NCBI GenBank assembly: GCA_037129835.1
Contig: JBAXUE010000005.1
Coordinates: 13,975-77,974 of the forward strand
DNA: 64,000 bases
Direction: 5' to 3'
DNA from: a bacterium
GTDB lineage: Bacteria; Patescibacteriota; CPR2; UBA1875; CAIMLA01
Shown here: one piece after another, positions 1,934 to 62,832 of the stretch
Position numbering within the stretch: the first letter of the stretch is position 1
Layout of the letters: every line of letters begins with the position of its first letter
Program-made: the position numbers and the translations under genes
The notes under the pieces: model-generated
Databases searched by the model: none
What the model was told of the DNA's origin: nothing
The model's input: only the letters and a program-made list of their open reading frames with translations

Positions 1934-2302
1934 ATGAATTATTATCGTTCGAACGAAGTGATAATTAAAACTTCGGACAATAGTTCTCGGCCGTACACTC
2001 GAACAATAACAAAAAGACAACACCCTAATTATTGTTCGAACGAAGTGAGAACTAAAAAATGGCATTGGTATGTCTACATTTTGGAATGTCTAGACGGTCT
2101 TTATTACACTGGAATGACATGGAACGTTGAAAATCGATTGGAACAACATTCTCTGGGTTTCGGCTCTAAGTTTACATCCAAACATGGGTTTAGGCAGATT
2201 CGGTATGTTGAAGAATTTTCAGATATTACTTCTGCTCGGGAAAGAGAAGTCCAACTAAAAGACTTTAGTCGTAAAAAGAAAGAAGGACTTTGGAATAATT
2301 AA
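1934..2302 (+). CDS. GIY-YIG nuclease superfamily protein (YhbQ/UPF0213-like); true start probably internal (GTG 2045)
   Basis: YVYILECLDGLYYTGMT...RLEQH matches the GIY-YIG core. The first 37 codons run through two copies of a non-coding repeat motif (YRSNEV twice), so the ~86-aa product from GTG 2045 is more plausible. Confidence 0.65.
   Translation: MNYYRSNEVIIKTSDNSSRPYTRTITKRQHPNYCSNEVRTKKWHWYVYILECLDGLYYTGMTWNVENRLEQHSLGFGSKFTSKHGFRQIRYVEEFSDITSAREREVQLKDFSRKKKEGLWNN
1944..1970. repeat. ATCGTTCGAAC-GAAGTGATAATTAAAA motif copy (GTTCGAAC palindrome family)
   Basis: Direct reading. Related to copies at 2031, 2343, 14463, 44780, 45328, 45429 and 45743. Confidence 0.6.
2031..2058. promoter_or_regulatory. 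ATTGTTCGAAC-GAAGTGAGAACTAAAAA motif copy, ends ~2 nt before an ATG
   Basis: Same family. Half-palindrome CGAACAATAAC also present at 2000..2010. Confidence 0.45.
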
Positions 2303-10749: not shown

Positions 10750-11285
10750 CAAATATATAGTAAAATCCCATCTTGTGCGCGATAGCGCACGTATATATTT
10801 GGTGGGGTAGTTTTAACTACTAGAACGACTTAATTAATCTCGGTAACAGGGGTGGGCGCGCGCATGAAATGGGGGTGCGTGCTCATTTCTCCCTTGCGGA
10901 GATAATAGTTAAGTAAGTGGGGGTGAAAGGCCCTTCCCTGCCACCAATTTCCCTATCTGCCACTTTATGTGGTTTGTACCTGTCGCTTTTGCGACGAAAC
11001 TAGGCTTTCCTCGTCGAGAATCTCTCGACGAAAGAAAGAAGCCGTCTTCGGTTGAATGGTCGCAGGGCGATCAGAACCTAACTGACGGCGTCAGTAAGTC
11101 TCTTTCGGCTTTCGCCGGCCGCTTGAGAATCTGCTCTCTGTGTCGGCGGGTACCAGAACCCCTGGCACGTCAGTGCGCAAACGATGCAAGTATTTGCTCG
11201 CAAACCGCACACTGGCCCCAAAGGTCTTCGCTTGAGTAATCAGCGAAGGCCCGAGGGGCCTTTCGCATTAAAATATTAGATTTTT
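10750..11285. other. GC-rich hairpin-dense non-coding island; candidate structured ncRNA (unassigned)
   Basis: ~55% GC against ~35% background. Many perfect short hairpins (CGTCGAGA-atc-TCTCGACG, CTGACG-g-CGTCAG, GTCGC-tttt-GCGAC, CCAC-tttat-GTGG, GGCCC-gag-GGGCC). Only a 90-aa low-complexity ORF. No RNase P P4 or SRP consensus found. Confidence 0.3.
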
Positions 11286-11509
11286 GTCATCCTTGCGAAG
11301 GCGAGGATCTCTGAGGTAATAAGAATTAATTTGATTTTGATTATTTTCTATTATCTATTTTCTCTTGAAAAAAAATGGAGTTAAGTTCAAGAAAAATCGA
11401 ACTCCTTCGTCTCTGCACTGAATTTTCAAACAAATTGAATAATTCCTTACATTCGACGATAGTTGGGTGTGTGGCACCGAAGCGATTTTTCATAAAAAGT
11501 AAAAGAATA

Positions 11510-12223
11510 TTACCTAGGTTTTTTAATAGCCGTCGTGGTAAGATTCGGTCCTAATAAAAACCAAAATTTATGTTTAAATCCAGATGTTTGGATTTGAGTA
11601 AATCCTGTTTTCCTTAAGAGCTGTTTCATCTCTGTTTTGGTCCAAGCATGAAAGTACCTGGTAGTCGTAACGATCGTGTCTGATCTTTTCCAAGGCATAA
11701 AAAAATCTCCAAGTGGGAGCTTGTTATCTGATAAGAAAGAGGCCCGGATTTGTTTGAGATATTTCGATTTATTCCAAAAATACCAATTTGTAAAAAATAT
11801 TTGTCCTCCTGGTCTAAGTATTCTTGATATCTCTTTGAGAGCTTCTATTCGTAACTCCTTACTCGGAATGTGGTGAAGAGTAGCGATACAATAGATGACA
11901 TCAAATTGGCCGTCTTCAAAAGGAGTTTTGAGCAGATTGCCAGCCACAAAATCGCCTTTTGGATATTTATTTTTGGCGATTTTGATTAAGTCGGGGCTTA
12001 GATCAAGTCCTGTATATCGAGCACCCTTCGACGTAAGGAATTCGTAAAGACGTCCATTTCCACATCCAAGGTCTAGAACATTCATATTTTTGAGCGCAAA
12101 TGATTCCGTGGCTTTTTCTATATCCGCCCATACATAATAACGAGTCCTAGAAAAGTGTTCCGATATTAGGTTATAATCATCACGGGTCTTAGTTATTAAA
12201 TTGTGAGCATATTTTTTATTCAT
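11510..12223 (-). CDS. class I SAM-dependent methyltransferase
   Basis: VLDLGCGNGRL (motif I) and DVIYC (motif II). Confidence 0.75.
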   Translation of the reverse strand: MNKKYAHNLITKTRDDYNLISEHFSRTRYYVWADIEKATESFALKNMNVLDLGCGNGRLYEFLTSKGARYTGLDLSPDLIKIAKNKYPKGDFVAGNLLKTPFEDGQFDVIYCIATLHHIPSKELRIEALKEISRILRPGGQIFFTNWYFWNKSKYLKQIRASFLSDNKLPLGDFFMPWKRSDTIVTTTRYFHAWTKTEMKQLLRKTGFTQIQTSGFKHKFWFLLGPNLTTTAIKKPR

Positions 12224-13901
12224 GAATATTAAAGAAGAAATTATTTATAAATTATTGGAAGCAAAAGCTTGTACACGAGGCGATTTTACTCGTGTGGTCG
12301 CTTCGGTGTATAAAAATGATAACACAAGCGGGTACCATTCGAATATGGAATTACGTTCTACGTACCAAATGCTTGTTGATTCTGGCGATATCGAAATAAA
12401 CGAAAACCTAGAAAAACTACTGATCACCAAAAAGATGCGTTCGCTCTCTGGAGTCTCCGTTATCACAGTTCTAACGAAACCGTATCCTTGCCCGGGTAAC
12501 TGTATATATTGCCCTACTGTAAAGAATGTTCCAAAGAGCTATTTGCCAGATGAGCCGGCAGTAATGAGGGCAATTCTCAATGATTATGACCCCAAGAAAC
12601 AAGTAGAAACTAGGATGGAATCCCTGGTCGGGCAAGGCCATCCTGTTGAGAAGGTGGAGTTAATCATAATAGGCGGTACTTTTTCACATTTACCCAAATC
12701 TTATCAGGAAGAGTTTGCGAAAAGTTGCTTTGATGCGCTAAACGGAAGCGTGTCAAAAAATTTGGTGGAGGCCAAAAAGTTAAATGAATTATCTATATCT
12801 CGATGTGTTGGCTTAACATTGGAAACCAGGCCTGACCATATTACAAAAGAAGAGGTGAAATGGTTTCGATATCTGGGCGCTACCAGAGTTGAGTTAGGTG
12901 TCCAAACTATCTATAACAATATTCTGCAGTTAAATAATCGTGGTGAAAAAATAGAAGACACTGTTCGAGCGACGAAACTGTTAAAAGACGCTGGATTTAA
13001 AATTTGTTATCACCTGATGCCAAATCTTTATGGCTCAGATTTGAAGAAAGATAAGCAAATGTTTGTTGAAATTTTCAACAATTCAGATTTTTGTCCAGAC
13101 TACATCAAAATATATCCCTGTATGGTAATTAATGGCACTGAACTATATAAACTTTGGCAAGAAGGAAAATATACATCATATACAGATGAAGAGTTATCAG
13201 AATTAATTTGCGATATCAAAAGAGAAGTACCTTATTGGATTAGGATTATGAGAACTATCCGTGATATTCCTGCGGGTAATATAGAATCAGGCTCTAAGGT
13301 GTCCAATATGCGCCAAAACATCCTTAAACAGGCAGAGGATGAGGGCTGGAAATGTCATTGTATTCGCTGTCGTGAAATTGGCGCAGGTCCGGCTTATTCT
13401 TCTTCGTCATCCTCATTCGAGCCTGAGCGAAGAGGTTCTCAGGCCTCAGAGCCGAATGGCCTGGTCACAAACCCAGGGATCTCTGACGGTCCATCCGAAG
13501 GAGATCTTCACCTTCGTAAGGATGACAAACCGATTATGTTTACAGACAAATACGATGCCAGTGAGGGAACAGAATACTTCTTAAGTTTCGAAGATGAAAA
13601 AAGAGAAAACCTTTATTCCTTACTCAGATTGAGATTAACGAACAACCAAACTATTGATGCTATTAGAAACTGCGCGATTATTCGAGAAGTACATACATAT
13701 GGTAAGGAAGTTGAGATTGGCAAAAAGGGGGACAATCAACACAAAGGATATGGCAGAAGGTTGATTGAAGAGGCTGAGAAGATTGCTAAATCTAATGAAT
13801 ACAAACAGATAGCGGTAATATCGGGGATCGGTGCCCGCGACTATTATCGCAAATTTGGTTATGAAGTTGTAGGCGAATACATGGTTAAAGAGTTGACATA
13901 G
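12222..13901 (+). CDS. Elp3-like radical SAM / GNAT acetyltransferase (tRNA wobble-uridine modification family)
   Basis: CPGNCIYCP radical-SAM cysteine triad, CHCIRCREIG, YDASEGTEYFLSFED and QHKGYGRRLIEEAE GNAT motif. Carries an in-frame ~120-bp GC-rich element (13405..13527). Confidence 0.8.
   Translation: MNIKEEIIYKLLEAKACTRGDFTRVVASVYKNDNTSGYHSNMELRSTYQMLVDSGDIEINENLEKLLITKKMRSLSGVSVITVLTKPYPCPGNCIYCPTVKNVPKSYLPDEPAVMRAILNDYDPKKQVETRMESLVGQGHPVEKVELIIIGGTFSHLPKSYQEEFAKSCFDALNGSVSKNLVEAKKLNELSISRCVGLTLETRPDHITKEEVKWFRYLGATRVELGVQTIYNNILQLNNRGEKIEDTVRATKLLKDAGFKICYHLMPNLYGSDLKKDKQMFVEIFNNSDFCPDYIKIYPCMVINGTELYKLWQEGKYTSYTDEELSELICDIKREVPYWIRIMRTIRDIPAGNIESGSKVSNMRQNILKQAEDEGWKCHCIRCREIGAGPAYSSSSSSFEPERRGSQASEPNGLVTNPGISDGPSEGDLHLRKDDKPIMFTDKYDASEGTEYFLSFEDEKRENLYSLLRLRLTNNQTIDAIRNCAIIREVHTYGKEVEIGKKGDNQHKGYGRRLIEEAEKIAKSNEYKQIAVISGIGARDYYRKFGYEVVGEYMVKELT
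13405..13527. mobile_element. RPE-like palindromic element inserted in-frame in the Elp3-like gene
   Basis: GTCATCC...CTGGTCACAAACCCAGGGATCTCT...TTCGTAAGGATGAC with inverted termini. GC-rich, encodes an S/G/P-rich peptide. Near-identical copy inside the AlkD-like gene. Confidence 0.5.
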
Positions 13902-14331: not shown

Positions 14332-14336
14332 TACGG

Positions 14337-16440: not shown

Positions 16441-17688
16441 ATGGCTACTGAAGAAGATAAAGGAATTAAACCGCTAGAGGCTGTAGAAACAACTGATAAT
16501 ATGGAGTTCGCCCCAGCCAAAAAAGAAAAACTCAAAATACCCAAGAACTTATTTATACTGCTTCTAGTATGTGTCATCACAATACCAGGAGCATATTTAC
16601 TTTATAGATCATTTGCTTCAGTAACTCGGACGTTGGTTTGGAGCGACGAATTTGACGGTACTGCATTAAATTTAACTAATTGGAGAATGACAGCTCCTTG
16701 GGGAAATGTCGTCAATCCAAATGCAAAAGAACTAGAACACTATTATCCTAAAAATGTAACAGTTAGCGACAGTAACTTAAAATTTAATACAACTAACCTC
16801 GGAACAGATATTACTTATCCTTATGAATCAGGGGTAGTCACAACTAATTCCAAGTTCGGATATGGATACATCGAAATGAGAGCAAAGCTCCCAAAAGGAC
16901 AAGGAATCTGGCCGGCTCTATGGATGATTAATTTCGAAGACACTCACGAAATAGATATTTTCGAGATGCTTGGGAACGAACCAAATAAAGTATATATGAC
17001 ATATCATAATACCAATCAAGAAGTTTACCAATCTGAATATATTGGACCAGATTTTTCTGCTGACTATCATATTTTTGCGGTAGACTGGCAACCAACTTCA
17101 ATCACTTGGTATATAGATGGAGTCCAGAGAGGTCAATATACTGGGGCCATCAAGCCTGACCCTTTGTTTATTTGTGCAAATACTGCAGTTGGAGGTCTTT
17201 GGCCTGGTTCTCCAGATAGTACGACAGTATTCCCACAAAATTATTACATTGATTATATTAGATATTATCAACAGACTGATGCTGTCATCCCTACCCCCAC
17301 TTCTACACCTTCACCAACCGTTGCTCCCACGGCTACTCCGACCCCTACTCCTACACCAACCCCTACTATTACTCCTATTCCTACGCCCACTAAAGTTCTA
17401 ACACCCACCCCTACAATTACCCCAATGGCCGTTTCCATCTCAAGTCCCTTGAGCGGAGGAAAAGTAAGTACTACATCTCAGATTATTAAAGCAACCGTAA
17501 CAGGGCCTTATGCTGTCAAATCAGTAGTGTTCTATATAGACGGAGTAGTTAAGTCAACTGTAACTAAGTCCCCATATTCTTATACTTGGAAAACAACATC
17601 CGTTACTAGGGGAACCCATATTATCAAGGTCCAAGCTACTGATTCATTAGGCCGAACAGCCTACAAGCAGATAATAGTAACCAGATAA
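16441..17688 (+). CDS. glycoside hydrolase family 16 (beta-glucanase/laminarinase-like), membrane-anchored, PT-linker + Ig-like C-terminal domain
   Basis: HEIDIFEM matches the GH16 E-x-D-x-x-E catalytic motif. N-terminal signal-anchor. PTPTPTP linker. Confidence 0.75.
   Translation: MATEEDKGIKPLEAVETTDNMEFAPAKKEKLKIPKNLFILLLVCVITIPGAYLLYRSFASVTRTLVWSDEFDGTALNLTNWRMTAPWGNVVNPNAKELEHYYPKNVTVSDSNLKFNTTNLGTDITYPYESGVVTTNSKFGYGYIEMRAKLPKGQGIWPALWMINFEDTHEIDIFEMLGNEPNKVYMTYHNTNQEVYQSEYIGPDFSADYHIFAVDWQPTSITWYIDGVQRGQYTGAIKPDPLFICANTAVGGLWPGSPDSTTVFPQNYYIDYIRYYQQTDAVIPTPTSTPSPTVAPTATPTPTPTPTPTITPIPTPTKVLTPTPTITPMAVSISSPLSGGKVSTTSQIIKATVTGPYAVKSVVFYIDGVVKSTVTKSPYSYTWKTTSVTRGTHIIKVQATDSLGRTAYKQIIVTR
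17309..17681 (+). repeat. 373-bp direct repeat copy 1 (PT-linker + Ig-like domain coding)
   Basis: Identical by eye to 19979..20351. Confidence 0.85.
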
Positions 17689-17835: not shown

Positions 17836-20358
17836 ATGGCTACCAAAGAAGAAAAGGTAATTAAACCACCAAAGTCTATAGAGACAACCGACAAGATGCT
17901 CGTCTCTCCTGTCAAAAAGAAACTAATGATACCCAAAAACTTTTTAATACTGCTTCTAGTATGTGTCATCACAATACCAGGAGCATATCTACTTTATAGA
18001 TCATTTGCCTCGGTTGGGACACAAAGTACGACAGCTACTAATACGGTCGATAGTATCAATTACCCCAGAACGGTAGAATATTGGAAGGACTATACTGCAG
18101 CAGAAAGGGCCAAGGTAGACCTGCTTATTATGGAACCATATCAATATCCAACCGAAACAAATGCTGTTAGAGCGCTTAATCCAGCTACTAAGATAATGCT
18201 TTATGAAGACATTGTAGAGTTTGATTATAATGCCAATGTAGCACCAACAGAATATGTAAATGAGCGTCTAAACGAAGGTTCTACTGATTGGATATTGACT
18301 CAGGTGGGGACTACCTTATCGGCAAGTGTTGATGCCACAACGACCACTATCCCTGTGACCGAGACAACGAAACTTAACGGTACGACTACCGTAGCTTTGT
18401 TCAAAATTGGTGAGCTTGCATTAGTCGATCACGAATTAATGAAAATCACAGCAGTTGGCACTAATACAATAACAGTCCAAAGAGGAGTTGTTAAAAAGGC
18501 GGCTGTACATGCAGCTGGTGTTCGAACAGCGGCCTGTGTAACTTTTTGGCCAGGCAGTGTAGTAACCGATATGACCAAAGCTAGTTTAGCTGTAGATCTC
18601 GGTACCGGCTTCGGACCAGAAACATATTACCAGTGGCGGGCAAGAGTGACGGGGACTAGAGCGGTTACAGAAAAATGGGACGGTGTTTATATGGATAGGG
18701 CAGATGGCAATGAGTCGTGGGTAATATCAACTGGTTATGCTAGAAGCTTTGATCAGGCTCGTACCAATACTTTTGTATCAGACAAATATGCTGCTTTTAA
18801 CACCTCTTGGAATGATGGTGAGATGCTTTATTATAAAGCCCTTAGAGCCAAGGTTGGAGTAGATATGCCGATTTTTGGTAACAGGGCTATCACAGGCTCC
18901 GCGGATATAAACGGTAGTTTAATGGAGGGATTTCCAGATAGTCAGATAAGTTCAAAGTCATGGCATGATATGATTGTTGGTCCCAACCTAGTCGCGGGTA
19001 GAGATGTTACTGGGACTTCTGTAATAGCTCCATATTTTAATTGGGTGAAAAATTCAAGAGATCCAAAATTGAATATAATCAATACTTACGAATATGAAGA
19101 CGGTACCAGCACTACAAATCCTTTTATTGATCCTAATTTTAAACGAAATTATCAGAAAATGAGATTTGGGCTGACAACTACCCTTTTGGGAAATGGCTAC
19201 TATGGTCACTTCTCGGGGATAACGGCTAAAAGCAACGGCTTTGCTTGGTTTGATGAATATGACAATGCTGGAGCGGGCAAAGGGTATCTTGGCCAGCCGA
19301 TTGGCGATGCTTATCAAGTTATCCCATCTCTTACGACTCCAGATCTAGTTAACGGAACTGGCACTTTTAATACACAAGCGCAACTTGATAGTTGGGAGCT
19401 GTATAACCGAGCTGGCTATGCATCGACAAAAACCCTCGATTCCGGCGCGGCTAAAATAAATATTACCGCAGCGGCTGGAAGCTTTAACGGAGTAGGTTTT
19501 TCATACCAGCCTTTTCCCATTACTGTTGGAGTAGAATATACTTTAACGTTTAGAGCAAAGGCTGATAAAGTTGTTAATATATATGCTTCTGCAGAGAAGA
19601 ATAATCCCTGGGGCTTCTTAGCAGAGTATGATGATCTTGGTCTTACTACAGATTGGCAGACTTTCAATATCCCTGTTAAGGCAATTGATTCAAGCACCAC
19701 TGGGACTATGAATTTTCTGCTTGGTGGAACCACTGGCACTATCTGGCTCGACGACGTCAAGCTTCAGGAAGGAAACCGTGAAGTCTACCGTCGTGACTTT
19801 ACTAACGGCATCTCTCTAGTAAATCCCACCGAATCTGCCGTCACTATACCTCTCGGTGGTAATTTCCGTAAAATCAAAGGGACTCAAGTTCCATCTATTA
19901 ATGACGGTTCTATAGTATCGTCAGTTACTCTTCAACCAAAAGATGGGATAATCCTTCTGCGAGAATCTGTCCCTATATCTTCACCAACCGTTGCTCCCAC
20001 GGCTACTCCGACCCCTACTCCTACACCAACCCCTACTATTACTCCTATTCCTACGCCCACTAAAGTTCTAACACCCACCCCTACAATTACCCCAATGGCC
20101 GTTTCCATCTCAAGTCCCTTGAGCGGAGGAAAAGTAAGTACTACATCTCAGATTATTAAAGCAACCGTAACAGGGCCTTATGCTGTCAAATCAGTAGTGT
20201 TCTATATAGACGGAGTAGTTAAGTCAACTGTAACTAAGTCCCCATATTCTTATACTTGGAAAACAACATCCGTTACTAGGGGAACCCATATTATCAAGGT
20301 CCAAGCTACTGATTCATTAGGCCGAACAGCCTACAAGCAGATAATAGTAACGAAGTAG
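17836..20358 (+). CDS. membrane-anchored putative glycoside hydrolase with CBM4/9-like carbohydrate-binding module, PT-linker and Ig-like C-terminus
   Basis: N-terminus nearly identical to the GH16 paralogue. Central TIM-barrel-like region (WDGVYMDRADG). CBM-like segment (WQTFNIPVKA...GTIWLDDVKLQEG). Hydrolase family not assignable by eye. Confidence 0.55.
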   Translation: MATKEEKVIKPPKSIETTDKMLVSPVKKKLMIPKNFLILLLVCVITIPGAYLLYRSFASVGTQSTTATNTVDSINYPRTVEYWKDYTAAERAKVDLLIMEPYQYPTETNAVRALNPATKIMLYEDIVEFDYNANVAPTEYVNERLNEGSTDWILTQVGTTLSASVDATTTTIPVTETTKLNGTTTVALFKIGELALVDHELMKITAVGTNTITVQRGVVKKAAVHAAGVRTAACVTFWPGSVVTDMTKASLAVDLGTGFGPETYYQWRARVTGTRAVTEKWDGVYMDRADGNESWVISTGYARSFDQARTNTFVSDKYAAFNTSWNDGEMLYYKALRAKVGVDMPIFGNRAITGSADINGSLMEGFPDSQISSKSWHDMIVGPNLVAGRDVTGTSVIAPYFNWVKNSRDPKLNIINTYEYEDGTSTTNPFIDPNFKRNYQKMRFGLTTTLLGNGYYGHFSGITAKSNGFAWFDEYDNAGAGKGYLGQPIGDAYQVIPSLTTPDLVNGTGTFNTQAQLDSWELYNRAGYASTKTLDSGAAKINITAAAGSFNGVGFSYQPFPITVGVEYTLTFRAKADKVVNIYASAEKNNPWGFLAEYDDLGLTTDWQTFNIPVKAIDSSTTGTMNFLLGGTTGTIWLDDVKLQEGNREVYRRDFTNGISLVNPTESAVTIPLGGNFRKIKGTQVPSINDGSIVSSVTLQPKDGIILLRESVPISSPTVAPTATPTPTPTPTPTITPIPTPTKVLTPTPTITPMAVSISSPLSGGKVSTTSQIIKATVTGPYAVKSVVFYIDGVVKSTVTKSPYSYTWKTTSVTRGTHIIKVQATDSLGRTAYKQIIVTK
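19979..20351 (+). repeat. 373-bp direct repeat copy 2
   Basis: Identical to 17309..17681. Confidence 0.85.
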
Positions 20359-20481
20359 TCAATTTTAGCTTAATAAACCTTTATAACAATCTTATTTCTG
20401 TTGCCAAAAAGACGATTTTGTACTATAATGCCATGGCAAAACAGGAAAACAACATATTGTATGAGAGGGGGTTGATCCTGA

Positions 20482-20766
20482 GTGGTACCTATATATCTAG
20501 ACACGGGCGTTGTGTCGGCCGGAAGAATTGCTGTTGTCACCGCGCTTCCTATTTGCGAAGACGGTAACTTCAGTGCCATTACTACGAGTAGGAGAGTGGA
20601 GCTGCTCAGTATTTGCGATCGAGTAGCCCTGGTAAACCTAAGTGGTGAATTGTGTGTTGCAAGTACGGAACCAGGGTTTGAATACTTGCTGATGCTTGAT
20701 GCGAGGATAGTCATCCTGGGGGACCAACAGTGGGCCTTCATTGATAATATCCCTACGGCGAATTGA
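20482..20766 (+). CDS. hypothetical protein (GC-rich island)
   Basis: GTG start with GAGAGGGGG RBS. Competes with an antisense ORF at 20370..20741. Chosen because it is co-oriented with the next gene. Confidence 0.3.
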   Translation: MVPIYLDTGVVSAGRIAVVTALPICEDGNFSAITTSRRVELLSICDRVALVNLSGELCVASTEPGFEYLLMLDARIVILGDQQWAFIDNIPTAN

Positions 20767-26564: not shown

Positions 26565-27257
26565 TTGGAAGATCATATACACATTTTAAAAAGAAAAATC
26601 GAATATAAGCAGATTTTTCAAGTAATACTCGGAATAATAATATACACAATATTAATCGTGGCATTTTATTTTGGTTGGCACGAAGGAATAATTCAAGAGT
26701 TTATTCACGAAGCTGGCTTTATCGCACCATTATTATATATTACAGTCGCATCGGGCAAGGCTATTTTTCCAATCATTCCAGGAGAAGTTTTGATAATAAC
26801 AGGTGTAGTTCTTTTTGGTCCTATTTGGGGTCTTTCGTATGCTCTTTTAGGTCTTACATTGGGTTCCACAGCTGCTTTTTTTCTAGCTAGAAGCTTGGGA
26901 AGAAGATGGGTGAAGTGGTTGCTTGGAGAAAAAAATTATCATAGGATTAATGATCTTTCCGGGGATAAAACAATATTTACTTTCTTTCTAGTTTATTTGA
27001 CCCCGGGGACTCCAGATGATTTCGTTACATATATAGCAGGCTTGACTAGTATCAAGTACTGGCAGTTTATCGCGATATGTATCATCGGTAGATTACCATC
27101 ATATATTATCGCCGTCATTGGCGGGGTGAGTTTAAAGACATTAGATTATCGGCTGATGTTTTTCTGGTGGGGAGTAATGTTTGTCCTAGTGGGATGTCTT
27201 TATTTATATAAAAAATACTTTCTTGATAAAAAACTAAAGGACATTTCTAAAAAATGA
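26565..27257 (+). CDS. DedA/TVP38/SNARE-associated family membrane protein
   Basis: IPGEVLIITGVVLFG...G(ST)xAxFxLAR(SL)LGR and later YLTPGTPDDFVTYIAGLT conserved DedA motifs. Confidence 0.75.
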   Translation: MEDHIHILKRKIEYKQIFQVILGIIIYTILIVAFYFGWHEGIIQEFIHEAGFIAPLLYITVASGKAIFPIIPGEVLIITGVVLFGPIWGLSYALLGLTLGSTAAFFLARSLGRRWVKWLLGEKNYHRINDLSGDKTIFTFFLVYLTPGTPDDFVTYIAGLTSIKYWQFIAICIIGRLPSYIIAVIGGVSLKTLDYRLMFFWWGVMFVLVGCLYLYKKYFLDKKLKDISKK

Positions 27258-28123
27258 CTTATGACGAAGTTATGCTTCGATTAGACAAACTAGCTAGTCA
27301 TGACCCAAAGGATTTGGCGGGCATGGCTCGTTTTGGCATCAACGTTGATAAAGCTTGGGTAATTAGTATGCCGAAGTTAAGAATATTAGCGAAAGAGATA
27401 CTCTCACATTACAAAATACAAAAAATTGATAATAATGTGTCATCCCTGGTCGCAAACCCAGGGATCTCTCCCGTACCATCCGACTTATCCAGCGTAGCTT
27501 TAGCGAAGATGAAAAGAGATCCTCACTTTCGTAAGGATGACACAATAAAGATCCAAGAGCTGCATACCCTCGCTCTAGAAGTTTGGGATTCCGGTATTCA
27601 CGAAGCTAGAATATTAGCTGGTTTGATTGATGATCCAAAGATGGTAACTGGGGAACAAATGGAGAAGTGGGTTCTAGGCTTTGATAGCTGGGATGTCTGC
27701 GACCAGACCTGCGGTAATTTGTTTGATAGGACAGAATTTGCCATAAAAAAAGCACACGAATGGTCAAAAAGATCCGAAGAATTTGTAAAAAGAGCAGGTT
27801 TTGTCTTAATGGCTGGACTTGCCGTTCACGACAAAAAGCTTGAAGACAACGTCTTTATAGAATTTTTAGATATTATAAAACGTGAGTCTGGTGATAAGCG
27901 TAATTTTGTACGCAAGGCTGTGAATTGGGCTCTACGGAGTATTGGTAAATCGAGGAACAAATATTTGTATGAAAAATCCATAAGGGTAGCTGAGGAGATC
28001 CTCGGTCAAGCCAAGGATGACAGCTTGGTATGGAGTGGCACAGAAATAAAGGCTATGAATTTCATCGCCGGTGATGCAAAAAGAGAACTAGAAAAAGATT
28101 ATATAAAGAATCGTTTTCTATAA
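27254..28123 (+). CDS. DNA alkylation repair enzyme (AlkD/AlkC-like HEAT-repeat glycosylase family)
   Basis: HEARILAG, WDVCDQ and VRKAVNWALRS motifs resemble the DNA_alkylation family. Carries an in-frame GC-rich element at 27437..27542. Confidence 0.55.
   Translation: MTYDEVMLRLDKLASHDPKDLAGMARFGINVDKAWVISMPKLRILAKEILSHYKIQKIDNNVSSLVANPGISPVPSDLSSVALAKMKRDPHFRKDDTIKIQELHTLALEVWDSGIHEARILAGLIDDPKMVTGEQMEKWVLGFDSWDVCDQTCGNLFDRTEFAIKKAHEWSKRSEEFVKRAGFVLMAGLAVHDKKLEDNVFIEFLDIIKRESGDKRNFVRKAVNWALRSIGKSRNKYLYEKSIRVAEEILGQAKDDSLVWSGTEIKAMNFIAGDAKRELEKDYIKNRFL
27437..27542. mobile_element. RPE-like palindromic element inserted in-frame in the AlkD-like gene
   Basis: TGTCATCC-CTGGTCGCAAACCCAGGGATCTCT...TTCGTAAGGATGACA. 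The core is near-identical to the Elp3 copy. Both are translated in the same frame (LVxNPGIS...H-RKDD). Confidence 0.5.
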
Positions 28124-28172: not shown

Positions 28173-28580
28173 CTATGTTTCGAAACGTCCTCGTCCGCGA
28201 TATTCTGTGTTCCCCATCTGTTTATTGACACGATTGACGAGACTGAAAGAGAAGTTGGCTCTGGTTTTGTGAGCTTGTTGCTCAGAGACGAAAGTATCGT
28301 CCCATTCCTTTCTGATACTCTTGAACTTCTTTCCATTTACGAAGTTCTGAAGATCCAGAAGGTCATTTTCGGTTGCTTTTTTCCAGATGCTAGTAACTAG
28401 CCGAACCCGAATGCCATTAATAGTGGCAAGACCCGCTTTTCGTAAGGGGCCATAGAGCGAATCTGGGACTCTGACAAGAGTCTTTTTTACCAAACCGTTG
28501 ACTGGATTGGTAAAAAGTATGCAAAGTGCAAGAATCAGCCGATGCTCTTGGTCAACATCCTTTAGGATATTGGGAACCAT
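28173..28580 (-). CDS. hypothetical protein (GC-rich island, possible remnant)
   Basis: 135-aa minus-strand ORF in a ~48% GC patch. Overlapping alternative ORFs on both strands. No motif recognised. Confidence 0.3.
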   Translation of the reverse strand: MVPNILKDVDQEHRLILALCILFTNPVNGLVKKTLVRVPDSLYGPLRKAGLATINGIRVRLVTSIWKKATENDLLDLQNFVNGKKFKSIRKEWDDTFVSEQQAHKTRANFSFSLVNRVNKQMGNTEYRGRGRFET

Positions 28581-40379: not shown

Positions 40380-40390
40380 CTGGAGACCCT

Positions 40391-40472
40391 GTCATTCCTG
40401 GTCGCAAGCCAGGAATCCACCCATATAAATATTTTATTTGAAATAGATTCCTGGCTTGCGACCAGGAATGAC
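40391..40472. repeat. perfect 27-bp inverted repeat pair (GTCATTCCTGGTCGCAAGCCAGGAATC ... GATTCCTGGCTTGCGACCAGGAATGAC) in the pheS-pheT spacer
   Basis: Direct reading. Each arm is itself a hairpin. Same GTCATYCC family as the in-gene elements. Confidence 0.6.
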
Positions 40473-40487
40473 AAAGAGGAAAAAGAA

Positions 40488-44880: not shown

Positions 44881-45327
44881 GTAAGCAGGGATCCATTTCG
44901 TAATACTTTGATACTTTTATCTATAGTTATTCTGTATTTACCACTTTTTTAGTAAAAGTGGTGCAAAAAGCCCGAACTGTCGGATTCTCACAGAGTCAGT
45001 AACTCACTTATTCATGTTTAGTAAAATTAACTCCCCGGCTATTGCCGGTTCAAACAAAATTATTACCAAAATATTTATAAGTAAGCTACTTCGCTTCTCG
45101 AACCGATTGTTCGGATAGAAACCGCGTAAACTCCCACGAATTCGGGTATCGTGCGTCGTCTATAACCCCATTGTCATCCCTGGACGACTCGTCCATCGTA
45201 GCCTTGGTGAAGTTGGAAGTGGAGAGATCTAACACAATATTTACCGTCATCCTTGGCTTGCCCGAGGATCTCTCGCACCTCCCCGTCATTTCAAACTCAA
45301 TTTGGAGTCCGTATCCACACCTTTTTT

Positions 45328-45942: not shown

Positions 45943-48900
45943 GTGAGGGTAATGAAACCTAGAAAAGCTCAATTCAGAGATGAACGAAAACGAGCTATGG
46001 TCAGACCTTCTGTGTTTGCTTATTTTAGTGTACGTAAAATATTACAAAAGGTTAAAAATTGGGCTTCGGAGAGCTATTTTGTGAGGTTATTCAGAACTTA
46101 TCGGTTATCCCCAGTGATGTTTGGAAAATCTAGGTCTCATAGGCAATTTAAGCCTCAAAAGGTGAGAATATCTATTATGAAGCGAATCCGTTTGTTTTAT
46201 TTTGAGTTATTATATCTACCACACCTCTTTGCTAGAAAACCGCACGACACTGCCTATAAGAATATTAAAATATATAAAAAATACATGGATCATCCTGCTT
46301 CGGGTCCGATAAACCGTTCTGTTGTGGCTGGGTTCTTGGCTTCGACCCTGATATTTTTGACACTTCAATATGTAATGCCAAATGTATTTAATCTTTTTAC
46401 CCCCAATAGGGTAGAGGCATCATCAACGCCGATAACTTGGACCAGTAATGCCGATTTCAATACAAATGCAGTGACCACTGGGACAGCCACCACTATATCC
46501 TCAACTAACGCGACCCCGAACATTATTGTGAGCAATAATCAAATGAAATTGAATACTGGCGCTGGGGTACCCATAGTCCAAACAAGTACATTTACAGTAC
46601 CGGCACTTGTAACAAGTATTAGTGTAAATATCTCCGGCGGCGGCGGCGGAGGTGGTGGTGGGGGTTATAGTTCTCGTCTTAGACAATATTCTGGTACTGC
46701 TGGAACTGCAGGTACTTTTTCAAGTATTAATGTCGGAGGGATGACATTTACTGCAAATGGTGGTAGTGGTGGTGGTGGTGGTTCCCCAAATACAACTACG
46801 CCTGGAGCAAACGGGGCTAGCGGTAGCACTCCTTTCAGCGGATATCCATCGCTAAGTGGGATTCCTGGCGGCGGTGCTGTCGGTGGAGCAGGTGGATCAG
46901 CATATGCCGCCATGTATATCGCTAGTGCTGGCGGAAGTGGCGGTGCTGGGGGAGTAATAACTGGCACAATTTCAGTTACGCCTGGTCAAGTCGTAACATT
47001 AGTTACTGGGATAGCGGGTCAAGGCGGCACAAGCCAGTCTTATTCTGGCTCTGGCTCTAGCGGCGGGGCTGGTTTATCTCAGGTAACTTACATATTGCCA
47101 TATAGACCAAGCGGCAATATTTCTGGACTAAAAGTAGATGCTGGTAATGGTGTGAACTATAACTGGGAAAGCATCAATTGGAAATCACAATCCTTGCCCG
47201 CAGATACTTCTATCTCTTTTCAAGTCAGAACTAGTGATAATAATGCAAACTGGTCGGCTTGGGGTGGTCCCTTTACCCAAACTGTGGCTGGTAGTATCTC
47301 TGGAACGGGCAGTATTTCTAGTATGGCGATGTCTCGATATTTAGAAATATATATAATCTTAAATTCACCATTGCAATACTCAACGCCCATCCTTGACGAA
47401 TTTACAATAAACCACAATTCTGTCGAGGCGCCCCTGAATAATGCGACGACACTTTCAAGGATAAATAATGTAAGGTTAAAAAAGTCGACAGGTGGCGAGT
47501 TACCCGCAGGTTCACCAGGAGGAACTACGAGTGAGACCGGCATAAAAGTCACTACAACTGGTCTAAGCTGTGTCGGATGTGCAGTCTCTTATAATCCTTT
47601 TGTCGAAGTGGAATACAAACCAGTCGGGACGGCATTTGACGGCGCTACCAATCTCTTTACGGGTACGGCTGATGGTACTAATACATCTGTGGCAACCATA
47701 AGTGGCCTTCCTACGAGCACTAGCTATCATCTGCAGATGAGGGCTAGAGATGCTCAGGGCAGGGCTTCTAATTGGGTACCATATGGCACGGCTCCAGAAA
47801 ATATTAATGAAGCAGATTTTATTATCGATCATGTTTCTCCTATAGGTTCGATTACTGGTTGGAAATCTAAAACTAATGTAGCAAATGTCTTGTATGGAGA
47901 TAAATACTACGCATCATCGCGAGATATTAAGATTGCTTTTACCGCAACAGATGCCGGTGGCTCGAATCTATCACATGTTCAATTTTCTAATGACGGTAAT
48001 AGCTGGGGGAGTGTAGCTTTGGCAAATGGGGTTGATGGGTTACCAAACACGATTGATGATGTATATACTTTTGTTTCTGACGGAACTAGTCCGATCACGG
48101 GTGCTTATTATGCTGGAGATATTCCTTGGCAGCTTACAGCAAATGACGGTCAAAAGTTAGTCTATTATAGAGTGGTTGATAATGCGAATAATCAAACACC
48201 TTCGTATGTTTGGAGTGTACAACAAGATTTCAACGGTATAACGCAAGGGACACTGGCTACGCTGAATAATATTGATCTCGTTACAAATCCAGACTCAATC
48301 GGAATCTCTACTTTATCGACACCGATCGTTCAAACTTATAGTACGCCTGGTGATTATAGTTTTGCTGTACCTGCTGATGTCGTGACGATGTCTGTTGAGG
48401 TTATCGGTGCTGGAGGCGGAGGTGATACACCAACTACTGGTGGTGCCGGGGGTCCATCGACATTGAGCATAAATGGAAATCCTTCATATTATGTGACTTC
48501 AAATGGTGGTGCAGGCGGTGGAGTAGTGGGAGGGACTTCGGTCGGTGGGTTTGCGGGGCTTACAGCTATAGATGGTCAAGGCGGTGCTGGTGGTGCTACT
48601 GGAACTGAATCAACATTTGTTCCAGCGGGCCCAGACTATGATGATTGTGACCCCCCTAATATAATAGGTTGGCATGATGCGCATTGGGACACTGTTTACT
48701 ATTCAAATGGCGGTGCGGGGGGTAAAGTAACAGGGAATATAACTCCAGTTACAGTGGCGGGGCAAACCTTATCTATAAATGTTGGTGCAGGTGGTGTGGG
48801 GGCAACCGATAGTGCTCCGGATAGTACAAACGCCGGTAATGGTGATAACGGGAGTATTAAAATTACTTATACTACACCTAGCGCTTTTCTGAAAGGAACT

Positions 48901-51900
48901 ATAGGAAATACCGGTGTCGGATTGCGAGTCGGTGATGAGACGAACGGGGTAAAACAAACATGGTCTAGCATGAACTGGTCAGCGACAGGCTTGAGTGCTC
49001 TAAATAAAATTGGCGTCAAGGTACGAGCTTCCGATGTATATGGCAGTGGAAGTTACGTAAATCCATCAAATAATACTAATAGTTTTTATTATTTAAGCTC
49101 TGGAACCTCCGGAGTGATTCCAATATCAGCAAGTATATCTAAGACGAAAACAATTGAAGTTCAGCTAGAGCTCAATGGAGATGGTCTGACCTCGCCGATA
49201 CTAAATGATCTATCTATATCTGCTCTACAGGATCCATCAGCAATCACACTAGAAAGTATTGCACCAACAGGAACGGTAGTCGTAAAGGACGCCACTACTA
49301 GTAGTACTACGTATGCAAAATCCAAAGCTGTTAAGCTTATCATGACTTCTTCGGATGCAGGTTCGGGGGTTAAGGATTTTCAGGTTTCAAATGACGGGAC
49401 TAACTGGGGTACATATACTGATGCAAGTGGAGTAATCTTGGATACAGTAGGAAACTGCACTACTCCAAAAAGTTGGGACGAGACAACCTTAACTTGTTTT
49501 AAGCCTTGGGATTCTTCCTATAGTTCCACGGGCTATACTGCCTGGAGCCTTGGTGGATCAGACGGGCCAAAGACTATTTATGTACGTTACCGAGACAACG
49601 CAGGTAATATTTCTGGTGCGTCAGGATTATATACAACGCCGAATACATACAGCTATACTGTACCGGCAGGTATTACTAGTCTGTATGTGGACATAATGGG
49701 TGGCGGTGGTGGTGGTTCAGCTCCTTACTTTACCTCTGGTTTTGGGGGTGGTCCATCGTCGATAACTGTTGGAGCTAGTACTTATACTGCAGCAGGGGGC
49801 TGTGGTGGTAGTGGTGAGTTTGGACCTGGAACTTGTTCTTCTTTGCCAACAAATAATATTGGATTAACAGTTGTTACTGGCGGCGGCGGTGTTGGTGGAG
49901 CACCAGAGTGTTCTGACGGTTGCGGTGAACCGGGGGCTCCTGGGGATAGAGTCTATGGAAATATCAATGTTACCCCTGGTCAAGTGATAACACTTATAGT
50001 TGGCGCTGGGGGTCTTCCTGGTGGGGGTTATGATGGGGAGCCATTGCCAGGTTCAGCTGGTTCAATTTCTTACAACGTTGGTGCAAAAGCAGATATTGTC
50101 CTTGACACTGCTGGTCCAACAGGAGGCACGATAACCTCCCCTGACGGTTTTATCACCGCTACTTCAAATGCTCTAGTGGTTAACGATGGCACAGATACAG
50201 CTAGCGGAGTTGATACAGCCACAAGGAAAGTCCAACGAAAATCAGCCACACTTTCTGCTGGCGTTTGTGGCAGTTATGGTTCCTTCGCCGATATTACCAC
50301 TACTGGAACTTATCCGAACTTTGTTGATGGGACAATCGCCTCAGATAACTGTTACCAATACCAATATTTGGTTTCTGACAAGGCCGGTCACCAAACTATT
50401 TATACAAGCACTGGTATTGCAAAGGTGGATAATGCCGGTCCTGCGGGTGGTTCTATCTCATATAATAGTGGTTATTTTACCGCTACCTCAATAGCCCTAA
50501 CTGCAAGTGATGGCACAGATACAGCTAGTGGTGTGAATATCGCAAGTAGAATAATGCAAAGAAAATCAGCAACGCTCTCGGCAGGAACATGTGGAGCATA
50601 TGGGTCATTCGCGACCATTACTCCTACCGGGTCTTATCCGAACTTTACAGACACGACGGTTGTAAATGCGAACTGTTACCAATATCAATATCTAGTATCA
50701 GATAATTCTGCCAATAGAAAGACCTACACCACAACAAATGTAGCAAGGGTGGATACGGTCGCTCCCACTACTACGGGTTCTATTACAGCCGGTACGACGG
50801 GAGCTAACGACTGGTACAAAGAAGATAATGTCACATATACTCTCATTCCTGCAGATGTAACTTCGACGGTGGCAACCACTATGTACTGCTTGGACACAAT
50901 CGGCAACTGTAGCCCAACCACAGTATTAACGACACCATTTCATATCACTCTTTCAACGGAGTCAGCGACAAACCATATACGTTACAAATCAACTGATAAT
51001 GCTGGGAATGTACAGACTGTTGTAGATTCCGGAGTTATCAAGCTAGACAAAACGGGACCAAACGGTTCGGTAACAGTAAATAGTGGTGATAAGGCCACCA
51101 ATGATCCTGAATTAAAAGCAAACCTAGCCTTTACTCTCAATGACTCACTTTCTGGTGTTGAGAAATATCAGATAGATAATAATGATAATGCTTGGCTACC
51201 ATCCACTCCTGTTGATATATCTACTTCGGGTGCTTCTATGTCTGGTACTTACCCAAATTGGCAGCTAGCACCTGCTGGTGATGGTAGAAAAGTAGTAAGA
51301 ATAAAACTTACCGACCTCGCTGGTAATGAGGTAACTAATATAACCAATTGGATTGCTTATGATACGACACCGCCAAGTTCTGTAAACACGATAGTTGTAA
51401 AAAACGGAGATAATCTTTCACAAACACTAGAAGCAAATGGACACTCGCAGGGATGGTATACATATAATAAACCACAGTTCAACTTTGGCGCCGTCGATGA
51501 TGAATCGGGTATCAAGGAATTTAAATATTGTTTCTACCGAGCTGCAGATGAGAACTGCGACTATAGTGTTAACACGCCAATACCAGCGATAGAAGAAGGG
51601 GAGACAAGTACCTATAAAGCAAACTATATGCCGACTCTTACGGACTTAAGACAAGGTGCTTTAACCTTTAAGGTAAAGGGTGTCGACTATGTCGGCCTCG
51701 AGTCTCCTGTTGCAACATATATCTATAAATATGATGTGACCTTACCAGGTAGGGTATCTGGTTTTTCCGCTTCGAAGGGAACAGAAGAAACAACAGTAAA
51801 GCTTACTTGGAATGTGGCAAATATTGATACTGGATACCAGGCGCCTATAGAACAATACAAGATTGAGAGACTGCTTGCATCCGAATATACCAGCGGACTC

Positions 51901-54900
51901 GGTGTAGACGGTAATTGGGCAGAAACAATAAACGGTACGAAAATGTATCCAAGTTATTATTCTATAGTCTTGGATACTGTAACTGATTCGGCTAAGATTC
52001 CAAAAATAGATAATATCTATAACTATCGTGACGAAACTATGGAAAATTCTACTAAATATATCTATCGTATCTCTGCAAAAGATTTTTCTAATACTACTCC
52101 TAACGATGGCTTTGGACCACCGCCTGTCAACGAGCCAGCGTTTGAGACTTATGGTTATACAAAGGATAGTAAGACTCCAGAGATAATGCCTTCCGGCGTG
52201 ACGGCGGATGTATGTGATGGGGCCAGTCTCTATAATATCGTTTCAAGCCCAACAGGTAATTGTACTGATCTCTCTAAGAGGGCCAAAGAGGTTAAGGTGT
52301 CTTGGTCGGGAGCTTCTGACAAAGGCTCGGGAATTGATTATTATGAAATCTATCGTCGAGAAGGCTATAGTAGCATGGATTTAACAGGTTGGACAGTGGT
52401 GGGGACATCCCCCGAAACAAATGATAGTCTTATTGTTAGACGAGTATTTTTTGATGAGACTGTGCTTGATGCTAAAAAATATTCATATCGTATTGTGGCT
52501 TATGATAATGCAAGGCCCATTCCTGCGAATAGTACAGATCTTATTTTGAATAATGACGAAACTGACGTCACGAATGCTACTATTATTCCAGCAGAAGTTC
52601 CCGACATCACCGCACCAATTGTGCCAGACGCATTTGGTATTTTACCGCTAGGTATTGATTATAATAATCCCGCAAAAGACGCAAACGGCGACCCCTTTCA
52701 GAAAGTAATGATCAGTTGGAAACAAACAACTGACAACTATGCAAACACCAGCATAACTTATGACCTTTACTTTAAGAACGTGGCCTCTGAGGAACCTTTT
52801 GAACAAATACATACCGAATCGTCGGAGCCTTACGACCCAGCTGTTATCCCTCCTGCCACGGAACCACCAACTAAATTATCGTTCTCTTATAGTCAGACAG
52901 GTCTAGAAGGATTAACATCGTATTATTATCAACTAAAGGTTACTGACTCGGACGGAAACACCGCCACTAGTAGTACTAAAGTAATAACTACGGGAAACAG
53001 CGCTGCACCAACACCTCCAACAGAAGTCGAAGTTAGAAATGATGTCAATTCTTTAACCAATGCGAGTACTCAGCTTGCAGTTTCATATCGAGGAAGCTGG
53101 TCTAGAAAGTGTAACTCAGTTACAAAGGCAAACTGTATTATCGGATACGAGGCATACCAAACAACCAGTAATATTTCTCCAGATATCGACGGCAGTCAGA
53201 CAGTAACTGATTCTGACAACTGTAGTTTGACTGAAACGCCAGATGATTGTTGGATAAGAATCAATAGTGCTACTCTTGTTAATAATCAAACACTAAACCC
53301 AATAGAAGATGAGAGATATACAAGCAAGAGAAGCTTTGTTGCAAATAATCTGATCTCGGCAACCAGGTATTATTATAGAGTTCGAGCAATCGATAATAGT
53401 ACAGATGTCGTCGGTGGATTGAAGTCAGCTTTTTCAACAACATTCGAAGAAACAAAACATAAAACAAATGACCTTCCGGATTCTGGCTGGGATATAACAA
53501 GGGACCTTACTCCTCCTCCACTTCCAATAGATGGTCTAGAAGTTAAGGTACGTGATACCCATCCAAATTCTACTTTGCTGAGAAACTTAATTAGTTGGAA
53601 AATACTAAGTGAAAAACCCTTAAGAAAGAAACTTCCTTATGAAACAGCTTATAACGCTACGACGAATCCAAAGGGCTGTAAAATAGTGGTTGTGAGCGGT
53701 GTAGACTACTGTAACGACTTTTATAGTTATGAAGTATATCGAGAAGTAGTGGACTCTAATGATAAAGTGATTTACGAAACTTCTACCCCGATAAAGACAG
53801 AGATTAACCCTGAGACGAATTTCTATATCGATGAGATTGGCAACACAGATCTTATCGGTGGTACGGGCAACAGCTCATTACTTATCGACGCCAAAATAAG
53901 ATACTATGTCAAAGTCGTAGATAGTTCTACTCATAATTTCAACTATCCAGATGGCTCTAGTATTAATGCGCTTCCAAATAAAACCGAGAGGCAAAATTCT
54001 GCCTATACTATTATTCCAGCCAAAGCGATACCTGCCGTTATCGGCAGTGTAAGCTTAACTGATGTTAGCGTTACGACAGCTGTTGTTGGTTGGGCTACGG
54101 ATCAAGATACAGATTCCCTCGTTCAATATAGAGTCAAAGGAAGCACCGGGGATTGGGTAACTGTAGGCCAAGTTGAGAGAAGTTCTTCACATTCCGTGAG
54201 ACTTATCGGAATGCTCCCAAATACGGCATATGAGTACAAGCTAGTTTCTAGAAATTATCTCGATAACAGAGCTTTGTATGTTGAATCTTCTGTTCCTGAT
54301 CTGGCAACTACTGGCTTCAATATTACACCGGGTACTGTAACAACCACTACTTCTACAACTGAAGTTAAATGGACTACTAATCTAGACGCTTCATCGGCCT
54401 TTGTCGAGTATCAACTTCAAAAACAACCAGGTGATGACCCTCAGGGAGGTACTGCTGGCGTAGAACCGGCGGCTCTTGCTGCAAGTCCTGCAAATCATAA
54501 GGTAATCATCAAGGGTCTACGTTCATCCAGGACTTATACCTACAAGATTAAATCTATATCCAAAGATGGTTATCTCGCCGAACATCCTGCCGGTGAATTC
54601 GCAACATTCAAGACCAGGTCTTTCGATTCGGCCCAGTTTACTCTCTCTCCTTCATCTTCAAATGTTGCAGAAAGAAATATTACAGCTACCACAGCCCAGA
54701 TAGTTTGGCAGACAGAGAATCCCACTACCTCATGGGTGGATTACTCTACTACCTCAGGTGTTTACGATGGTGCGGCGGGTAATAATGATTTAGTAAGTTC
54801 TCATGTTGTAGTAATAGATGGTCTTATTCCAGGTACGAAGTATTTCTACAGGGTTCGGGTAAAAGATGTCAATGAAGTAGAATATACGTCTCAGGAGTAT

Positions 54901-62810: not shown

Positions 62811-62832
62811 AGAAGATTATCGCTTCCTTTCT

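Follow-up and report, generated by a model that had tools for sequence, protein, structure and literature searches.

The Elp3 gene and its inserted segment

We examined a 64,000-nt stretch of a Patescibacteriota contig (JBAXUE010000005.1 of GenBank assembly GCA_037129835.1, forward-strand positions 13,975 to 77,974), referred to here as the window and numbered from its first letter. Within it, the gene for Elp3, a radical-SAM and GNAT enzyme of tRNA U34 modification, carries a short palindromic segment in frame. Relatives of this segment lie elsewhere in the window, both inside an AlkD-like DNA-glycosylase gene and between genes, including the pheS-pheT and gyrB-gyrA spacers (Table 1). The host open reading frame (ORF) is intact. 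Thousands of homologues of its product contain PF04055 and PF16199 and are named as the tRNA U34 radical-SAM/GNAT enzyme Elp3, and most of them come from Patescibacteria. Elp3 chains in the PDB match the host protein at E 1e-128 in two blocks, residues 65-388 and 440-558; the alignment skips residues 389-439, a region of 51 amino acids (aa) here versus 16 aa in the Elp3 of M. infernus (6IAZ).

An earlier note on this DNA, made from the sequence alone, had picked out a GC-rich, Ser/Gly/Pro-rich segment with GTCATCC...GGATGAC ends that lies in frame within the gene, and these properties were all borne out. Positions 13405-13527 read cGTCATCC...GGATGACa, include CTGGTCACAAACCCAGGGATCTCT, and continue the Elp3 reading frame. 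The GC content of the element is 55.3%, versus 38.2% for the remainder of the gene, a jump of 17 points to a level attained by just 0.9% of all 123-nt windows across the 64 kb. Ser, Gly and Pro together make up 41% of the 41 insert residues, versus 16% of the residues elsewhere in Elp3. The linker between the CIRCRE and YDASEG motifs is lengthened, as the note had also claimed, but by more than the ~30 residues given there: it measures 58 aa, whereas the median over 120 orthologues is 17 (quartiles 17-21), and the excess of 41 aa corresponds to 123 nt. Taken by themselves, the 7-nt termini carry no significance, each heptamer being present nine times in the window.

The insert occupies the linker that joins the radical-SAM and acetyltransferase domains of Elp3. 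An AlphaFold2 model of the protein (62 sequences) has a mean predicted local distance difference test score (pLDDT) of 86.6, and values below 50 are restricted to one long run, residues 390-431, and one short run, residues 498-502. In this model, the insert is the sole long disordered loop of an otherwise confidently predicted protein. Its placement within an ORF, in frame and at a position predicted to be compatible with the fold, is also that of Rickettsia palindromic elements (RPEs).

Searches for a known RNA gave nothing that explains the segment. At the gathering threshold, Rfam returned no family over the window that accounts for the element; at E-values up to 5 over 13300-13650, there were only chance-level matches to small nucleolar and long non-coding RNAs; and permissive E-values around two repeat-rich spacers likewise produced no family that accounts for it. 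A tRNA scan of the 64-kb window found none.

Anatomy of the element

The earlier note had described the segment as an element bounded by inverted termini. It is palindromic, but it is no simple terminal-inverted-repeat element. Rather, two convergent ~27-nt hairpin units form a dimer around a short spacer, with a third hairpin nested inside. The units follow a common design: a YGTC tag, an 8-9-bp stem that starts with AT, a loop, the complementary half of the stem, and a tail that begins with C. The left unit is interrupted by the nested hairpin. Alignment with the copy in the AlkD-like gene puts a 48-nt gap exactly 3' of CGTCATC, and when these 48 nt are removed, so that 13405-13411 is joined to 13460-13484, a perfect 8-bp stem, ATCCCTGG/CCAGGGAT, results. 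The nested hairpin itself is of a design related to that of the main units. The right unit matches 27516-27542 at 25/27 positions and the reverse complement of 11283-11311 at 26/29. A fold of the element, which the earlier note had suggested as a check, is better than that of every one of 200 shuffles (200/200, z -3.17).

Related units in the window

The 105-nt heterodimer in the AlkD-like gene was known from the earlier note, where it was described as a near-identical copy translated in the same frame. The two copies are indeed related and share their frame, with LVTNPGIS/LVANPGIS and HLRKDD/HFRKDD as corresponding peptides, but near-identity does not hold. A global alignment leaves a backbone of ~75 nt in common and requires indels of 48 and 30 nt, the first being extra sequence in the Elp3 copy (13412-13459) and the second extra spacer sequence in the AlkD copy. 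The two copies are mosaic relatives, and their modules match at 24/25 over 25 nt (E 1.6e-6) and 25/27 over 27 nt (E 2.6e-5). Most AlkD-like orthologues do not carry the AlkD element.

A structural scan placed units at 11286(+), 27439(+), 27518(-), 27997(-), 40391(+), 40446(-), 45246(+) and 62833(+). The pheS-pheT homodimer folds at -36.6 kcal/mol (z -12.6). The unit in the gyrB-gyrA spacer differs at 2/28 positions from the consensus of NTS, a hairpin repeat of Neisseria that we compare with these units below, and it is the single match in the window to the strict Ssn-related motif (SRM) pattern, HGTCWYN(0-2)YYVSBRHN(0-5)WNVSBRGN(0-2)RNCYNB (PMC11893778), for which 0.18 matches were expected by chance.

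Two of the intergenic locations have features of their own. Positions 11264-11361, which overlap the solo unit at 11285-11311, give a sub-threshold Rfam match to the Francisella small RNA FtrB (27 bits versus a gathering threshold of 66, E 0.036); this match probably reflects a CGTC/NTS-like hairpin within that Rfam model. The CGTC-type units at 45172 and 45246 fall within a 1.2-kb non-coding stretch (44700-45940) that is packed with repeats and has no Rfam hits. It includes three copies of a 48-93-nt unit with TTGTTCGAAGTCCGGCAACTGCCGGAT.GAGAAC hairpins (44776-44870, 45323-45417 and 45738-45785), as well as a ~95-nt segment (45573-45662) that is 70-74% similar to 11397-11491.

Table 1. Coordinates of the Elp3 element, its relatives in the window, and the GIY-YIG nuclease locus
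Feature	Position	Strand	Description
Elp3 host gene	12222..13901	+	559 aa, intact ORF; radical-SAM + GNAT tRNA U34 modification enzyme
Whole inserted element	13405..13527	+	123 nt = 41 codons, residues ~395-435; YGTCAT...ATGACR
Element junctions within Elp3, example stretch			...GSQASEPNGLVTNPGISDGPSEGDLHLR...
Left unit, 5' part	13405..13411	+	Tag cGTC and first stem bases ATC; cut off from the rest by the nested hairpin
Nested hairpin	13412..13459	+	48 nt = 16 codons; CTCATTCGAGCCTGAG...CTCAGAGCCGAATGG; sits within the left-unit stem
Left unit, remainder	13460..13484	+	CCTGG-tcacaaac-CCAGGGAT-CTCT; 24/25 identical to 27445-27469
Inter-unit spacer	13485..13500	+	16 nt
Right unit, inverted	13501..13527	-	tGTC-ATCCTTAC-gaag-GTGAAGAT-CTC; one C·A mismatch, one wobble
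Sister element	27438..27542	+	Heterodimer of 105 nt; lies in frame within 27254..28123, the AlkD-like DNA-glycosylase gene
Sister element, parts	27438-27468, 27469-27515, 27516-27542		Left unit, spacer, right unit
Solo unit	27995..28021	-	In frame close to the C-terminus of the AlkD-like gene; encodes EILGQAKDD
Homodimer	40390..40473	.	pheS-pheT intergenic (pheS by Pfam); perfect 28-nt arms, 28-nt spacer
Solo unit	11285..11311	+	Intergenic; subfamily of the right unit of the Elp3 element
Solo unit	45246..45272	+	Intergenic; 96% identity with 27995-28021 reverse-complemented
Truncated relative of the AlkD element	~45172-45232
NTS/dRS3-type unit, canonical	62832..62859	+	TGTCATTCCCGCGAAAGCGGGAATCTAT; gyrB-gyrA spacer
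Small GIY-YIG nuclease gene	2059..2302		81 aa; PF01541, E 5.5e-14; one such gene in the window
TTATYGTTCGA units	1941-1967, 1981-2009, 2029-2055, 2307-2335, 2341-2367	+, -, +, -, +

Copies in other genomes and metagenomes

Loci and contigs from other metagenomes that we compared with the window are numbered L001-L023. A metagenome scan with a 21-nt core found the left-unit module in seven loci. The closest relative of the whole element is a 123-nt copy in L009 that is 85% identical to it (E 1e-34), includes the nested hairpin, and lies in a QueA-like ORF in the same frame as in Elp3. The AlkD element has a counterpart in L012, a 104-nt copy at 87.5% identity that is in frame in a MiaB/RimO-like ORF, between its N-terminal and radical-SAM domains. 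In L010, a copy lies in a DHH-phosphoesterase-like ORF, with the nested hairpin in the opposite unit and in a different frame. A dimer within a QueH-like ORF (L008) is translated from the opposite strand, and the shared entity is therefore the DNA and not the peptide. The copies in L013 and L014 are intergenic. Dimers are present in L003-L013, one of them at 4176-4249 of L003. When we scanned a genome collection that does not contain the source genome for the CCTGG-type unit, there were four hits in two metagenome-assembled genomes (MAGs; Patescibacteria group and Ca. Saccharibacteria), where the unit occurs in hetero-dimers. A BLAST search of the element against plasmids gave no match. The repeat-bearing genomes found in this way are Patescibacteria or Ca. 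Saccharibacteria MAGs, and Patescibacteria is also the name given with the best homologues of the proteins in the window.

The earlier note had proposed a search for more copies, whose absence would have counted against its reading, and an inspection of their frames. Copies do occur in unrelated genes and between genes, both in the window and in other metagenomes, and every intragenic copy has a length divisible by three and is free of stops in the host frame. Per copy, only one or two of the six frames are open (four of six in one short copy), and these always include the host frame. We also considered whether a length divisible by three is a property of intergenic copies; lengths of 84 and 114 are suggestive, other copies contradict it, and we give the idea no weight. 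In every one of the copies compared, GTCAT is preceded by a pyrimidine and ATGAC followed by a purine.

Interpretation

We interpret the segment as a non-autonomous palindromic repeat of the CGTC-tagged repetitive extragenic palindrome (REP) superfamily, which lies in frame in the Elp3 domain linker as a tolerated passenger, and we put the probability of this reading at roughly 0.8. The segment belongs to a repeat family, is absent from most orthologues, keeps the host frame open, and coincides with a predicted disordered loop. Most Elp3 orthologues at ≤67% identity have a short linker, and the same segment is present at the linker in no orthologue examined. The segment is therefore not ancestral, in line with the earlier note.

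The element would persist in Elp3 because its length is a multiple of three, it has no stop in the host frame, and the insert would form, in the protein, a disordered surface loop rich in Ser, Gly and Pro without harm to the fold. Spread of such repeats may proceed through single-stranded hairpin intermediates on which a nuclease specific for hairpins acts in trans; for hairpins of this class, the candidate put forward in the literature is the small GIY-YIG single-stranded DNA (ssDNA) nuclease Ssn. Homologous recombination that exchanges whole segments of genes could also move copies between strains. At the Elp3 locus, the element would be an essentially neutral passenger. This is known behaviour, seen here in a new phylum, Patescibacteria; the literature searched, with incomplete coverage, contained no report of such inserts in that phylum. 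Less expected are the recurrent hot spots, the replacement of alleles between near-identical strains, and the possible maintenance of hairpins.

Several observations weigh against this reading, or against parts of it, and the first set concerns the history of the linker. In 18/120 Elp3 orthologues, the linker is long and filled by other hairpin repeats, which encode peptides such as VIPAKAGIQ...DSRLRGND, VIPSEVEESRSLRSSRDD, VILSKAKNLDPSAKPQDD and GSDP...RVGP; in three of these long-linker orthologues, the DNA of the insert is palindromic. The linker is thus a recurrent hot spot, and a single recent insertion is not demonstrated. Further, in ~14 inserted orthologues read by eye from the alignment, the ...ATGAC end falls 6-7 codons 5' of a conserved K/E-Y, and occupation of the linker may be long-standing, with turnover inside it, instead of resulting from a recent hit. 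Insertion hot spots of Elp3 lie at residues ~178, 393-436 and ~474, each with hairpin-repeat peptides that depend on the lineage, and the AlkD-like gene has two hot spots. The Elp3 linker, then, is recurrently or anciently occupied.

Nor did we find an empty site in a close relative, so insertion is inferred only from orthologues that are ≤67% identical. The nearest strain, L001, has a different palindrome. Its identity to the window is 99-100% in two blocks, 11350-13390 and ~14150 to 15772. Between these blocks (L001 2267-3050 versus window 13391-14150), an unrelated palindrome, GGGTCCGACCC...GGGTCGGACCC, stands at the Elp3 linker instead of the element, and the ~600 nt 3' of it are just 83-96% identical to the window, which makes a mosaic tract of ~0.6-0.8 kb that begins at the element. 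The same alternative palindrome is also present in L002, whose Elp3 is 63% identical. We read the diverged tract as the product of recombination that swapped one occupied allele for another; a donor for the tract was looked for and not found.

The second set of adverse observations concerns the mechanism. No direct repeat that could be a target-site duplication flanks any of 10 copies compared, and no conserved target motif was found among the copies compared. Hairpins of a second family, TTATYGTTCGA-loop-GAGAACTA, lie on either side of the window's GIY-YIG gene. Its orthologues are 65-85% identical across Patescibacteria, and in four other Patescibacteria contigs (L015-L018) the gene has the same hairpin flanks, the downstream hairpin overlapping its stop codon. 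By analogy, this looks like an Ssn-type architecture with a different cognate hairpin. In all the loci compared, no GIY-YIG gene is flanked by YGTCAT units and no nuclease is tied to these units. When 48 ORFs of the window were scanned with Pfam, no transposase, Y1/HUH or IS110 gene was detected. The units of the Elp3 and AlkD elements do not match the strict SRM pattern. Finally, translation of the insert is a proposal made from the open frame.

The alternative that survives best is that selection keeps the hairpins within genes because they act in cis as DNA or RNA signals, such as sites at which an Ssn-like ssDNA nuclease gates recombination of incoming DNA, with the protein loop as a cost. 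The main support comes from the solo unit close to the C-terminus of the AlkD-like gene. Five AlkD-like orthologues (L019-L023; 56-61% aa identity) have a 27-nt, GTCAT-headed hairpin at the codons of 27995-28021, with no indels and with different stems; more distant orthologues are without the EILGQAKDD segment. Across the six sequences, 89.6% of cells are paired, versus 15-52% with slid partners. Compensatory changes are present in 4/8 stem pairs, and the covariation score of 0.40, versus 0.24 for shuffled data, is reached by 2/500 shuffles. In addition, a D/N codon change (GAT/AAT) tracks a synonymous Ile change (ATC/ATT) in 5/6 sequences. Selection on structure, gene conversion from resident repeats and repeated insertion all fit this pattern, and six sequences do not separate them.

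In-gene maintenance would account for the loops occupied in many lineages, for the compensatory stems, and for the replaced element with its diverged tract in the 99%-identical strain L001, where the putative recombination tract adjoins the element. The recurrent hot spots in Elp3 and in the AlkD-like gene favour it too, as does the finding that NTS and Ssn modulate transformation in Neisseria (PMC11893778). On the other hand, the units of the Elp3 element are themselves interrupted or mismatched, as decay would give; no cognate nuclease lies beside YGTCAT units in the loci compared; and in Neisseria the repeat is seldom intragenic. We therefore consider this explanation unlikely, though not negligible. 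If it were true, it would tie Ssn ssDNA nucleases to gene-internal recombination control.

A tolerated passenger also has to be distinguished from a selected peptide. The shared sequence SSLVANPGIS...RKDD could be a protein module, such as a linear motif or an interaction loop, that has been shuffled among proteins with the palindrome as an incidental property, and one frame, hence one peptide, does recur in Elp3 and in the AlkD-, QueA-, MiaB- and DHH-like proteins. However, this sharing is forced, because only one or two frames are open. The QueH-like copy, read from the opposite strand, gives a different peptide, and other copies are intergenic; the frame of the nested hairpin differs between Elp3 and the DHH-like gene; the loop is disordered in the AlphaFold2 prediction; and unrelated repeat peptides occupy the same linker in orthologues. 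We regard a selected peptide as very improbable.

It is harder still to credit that the segment is an intron- or intein-like intervening sequence whose removal, from the RNA or from the protein, leaves a mature Elp3 without the insert. Patescibacteria are known to carry intervening sequences in rRNA genes, and the segment has strong predicted secondary structure, but no Rfam family matches it in the searches above, 41 aa is far below intein size, and the divisibility by three and freedom from stops of all intragenic copies look like a signature of translation. The remaining possibility, a hypervariable, low-complexity linker that drifted without any mobile DNA and resembles 27438-27542 by chance, could appeal to the variable length and sequence of the linker across the family and to the insignificance of the heptamer termini, but it is ruled out by the metagenome copies in unrelated genes (the 85% match over 123 nt and, for the sister element, the 87.5% match over 104 nt), and the palindromic architecture shared with intergenic copies and the jump in GC content also speak against it.

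For a repeat of the kind we favour, the consequences reach beyond one gene. In these compact genomes, repeats settle repeatedly and in frame in a few tolerant loops of housekeeping enzymes (Elp3 and AlkD-, QueA- and MiaB-like proteins). Such inserts inflate and diversify proteins, can mislead calls of orthology and domain boundaries, and mark sites of recombinational difference between strains.

Other features of the window

The long ORFs that we take as genes are on the plus strand except for about three (11510..12223, 20370..20741 and 28173..28580), and the cumulative GC skew rises across the entire window. A 300-nt duplication at 99% identity (17303-17602 and 19973-20272) corresponds to a C-terminal Big_7 (bacterial Ig) domain in two adjacent glycoside-hydrolase-like genes, 16441..17688 and 17836..20358; upstream of both genes are similar stretches of 44-101 nt (16367/17764 and 16522/17914). 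A giant ORF, 45943..55611, encodes 3222 aa with Gly-rich repeats, the first 1000 residues of which have no Pfam match. For the product of the next ORF, 56105..58585 (826 aa), Pfam reports the TrwB type IV coupling-protein DNA-binding domain and HerA/DUF87, both as weak matches.

Comparison with known repeat systems

The units described here correspond most closely to CGTC-tagged REPs, families CGTC-1 to -4 (Di Nocera, De Gregorio and Rocco 2013, PMC3733652). These are defined by a CGTC or TGTC tag (variant CCTC), a stem of 8-9 bp in which the first two pairs are A-T and T-A, and a loop of 4-5 nt, longer in some families, followed by a short unpaired tail that is mostly CCA. They occur mainly as inverted dimers, often heterodimers, with spacers of 20-100 bp; an intragenic fraction consists of dimers that encode 20-30 aa, and no dedicated transposase is known for them (PMC3733652). 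All of these sequence features recur in the window. Every unit starts with YGTC, the tags of the Elp3 element being cGTC (13405) and tGTC (13527, minus strand). Stems such as ATCCCTGG/CCAGGGAT, ATCCTTAC/GTGAGGAT and ATTCCTGGT/GCCAGGAAT are of the defined kind; loops are 4, 5 or 8 nt and tails CTC, CTA or CCA; and dimers are found at 13405-13527, 27438-27542 and 40390-40473, as well as in L003-L013. There are differences: the loop of one subfamily here is 8 nt long, most tails read CTC or CTA instead of CCA, and the Elp3 copy has a nested third hairpin. Five phyla are listed for CGTC REPs, and Patescibacteria is not among them (PMC3733652).

Other classes of small palindromic repeats resemble the element less well. 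REP doublets forming hairpins (REPINs) and bacterial interspersed mosaic elements (BIMEs), which depend on REP-associated tyrosine transposases (RAYTs, IS200/IS605-type Y1 transposases), likewise consist of two inverted REP hairpins and a spacer, a set able to fold up as a single long hairpin, and they are non-autonomous and without target-site duplication. However, REPINs are tagged GTAG and almost exclusively extragenic, whereas the tag here is YGTC. Bacterial MITEs (miniature transposable elements with inverted repeats; Correia/NEMIS, ERIC, Nezha, Chunjie) are also small, palindromic and non-autonomous, and occasionally form in-frame fusions with ORFs. They have terminal inverted repeats of 15-30 bp and target-site duplications made by DDE transposases, and neither such a duplication nor such a transposase is found here.

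A closer parallel is NTS of Neisseria, which is dRS3 with oriented flanks and is bound and cut as ssDNA by the 94-aa GIY-YIG nuclease Ssn; ssn genes are typically flanked by cognate hairpins (PMC11893778). NTS and the units here share the hairpin design CGTC-ATTCCCGC-loop-GCGGGAAT-C. In L003, both arms of the Elp3 insert are exactly the 28-nt Neisseria NTS consensus, and the Elp3-insert units of L003 and L015, together with the QueH-like insert of L008, have 0 substitutions relative to the NTS 28-mer, a striking match between Patescibacteria and Neisseria. NTS and the units here differ in location, since NTS is rarely intragenic, with 2% of copies inside genes in N. meningitidis (PMC11893778).

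The comparison with RPEs, which the earlier note had drawn, gains support from the same source that defines the CGTC REPs: CGTC-1 is dRS3 in Neisseria, and CGTC-1 and CGTC-4 are RPE-6 and RPE-4 in R. conorii (PMC3733652), so that a definition that covers the units here also covers two RPEs. According to two later accounts, RPEs (Ogata et al. 2000/2002) are palindromes of ~100-150 bp that lie in frame in housekeeping genes and were judged compatible with the fold (PMC10969869, PMC3733652). The Elp3 element is likewise a palindromic repeat, in frame and non-disruptive, and the link between the two rests on the published identity of RPE-4 and RPE-6 with CGTC REPs; RPE-1 is a longer and different element. 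RPEs reside in Rickettsia, whereas the host here belongs to Patescibacteria. Because the sequence features match CGTC REPs that include RPE-4 and RPE-6, the resemblance to RPEs is probably homology at the level of the superfamily. The range of the CGTC REPs, selfish or semi-domesticated hairpins that include dRS3/NTS and RPE-4/-6, thus extends to the Candidate Phyla Radiation.

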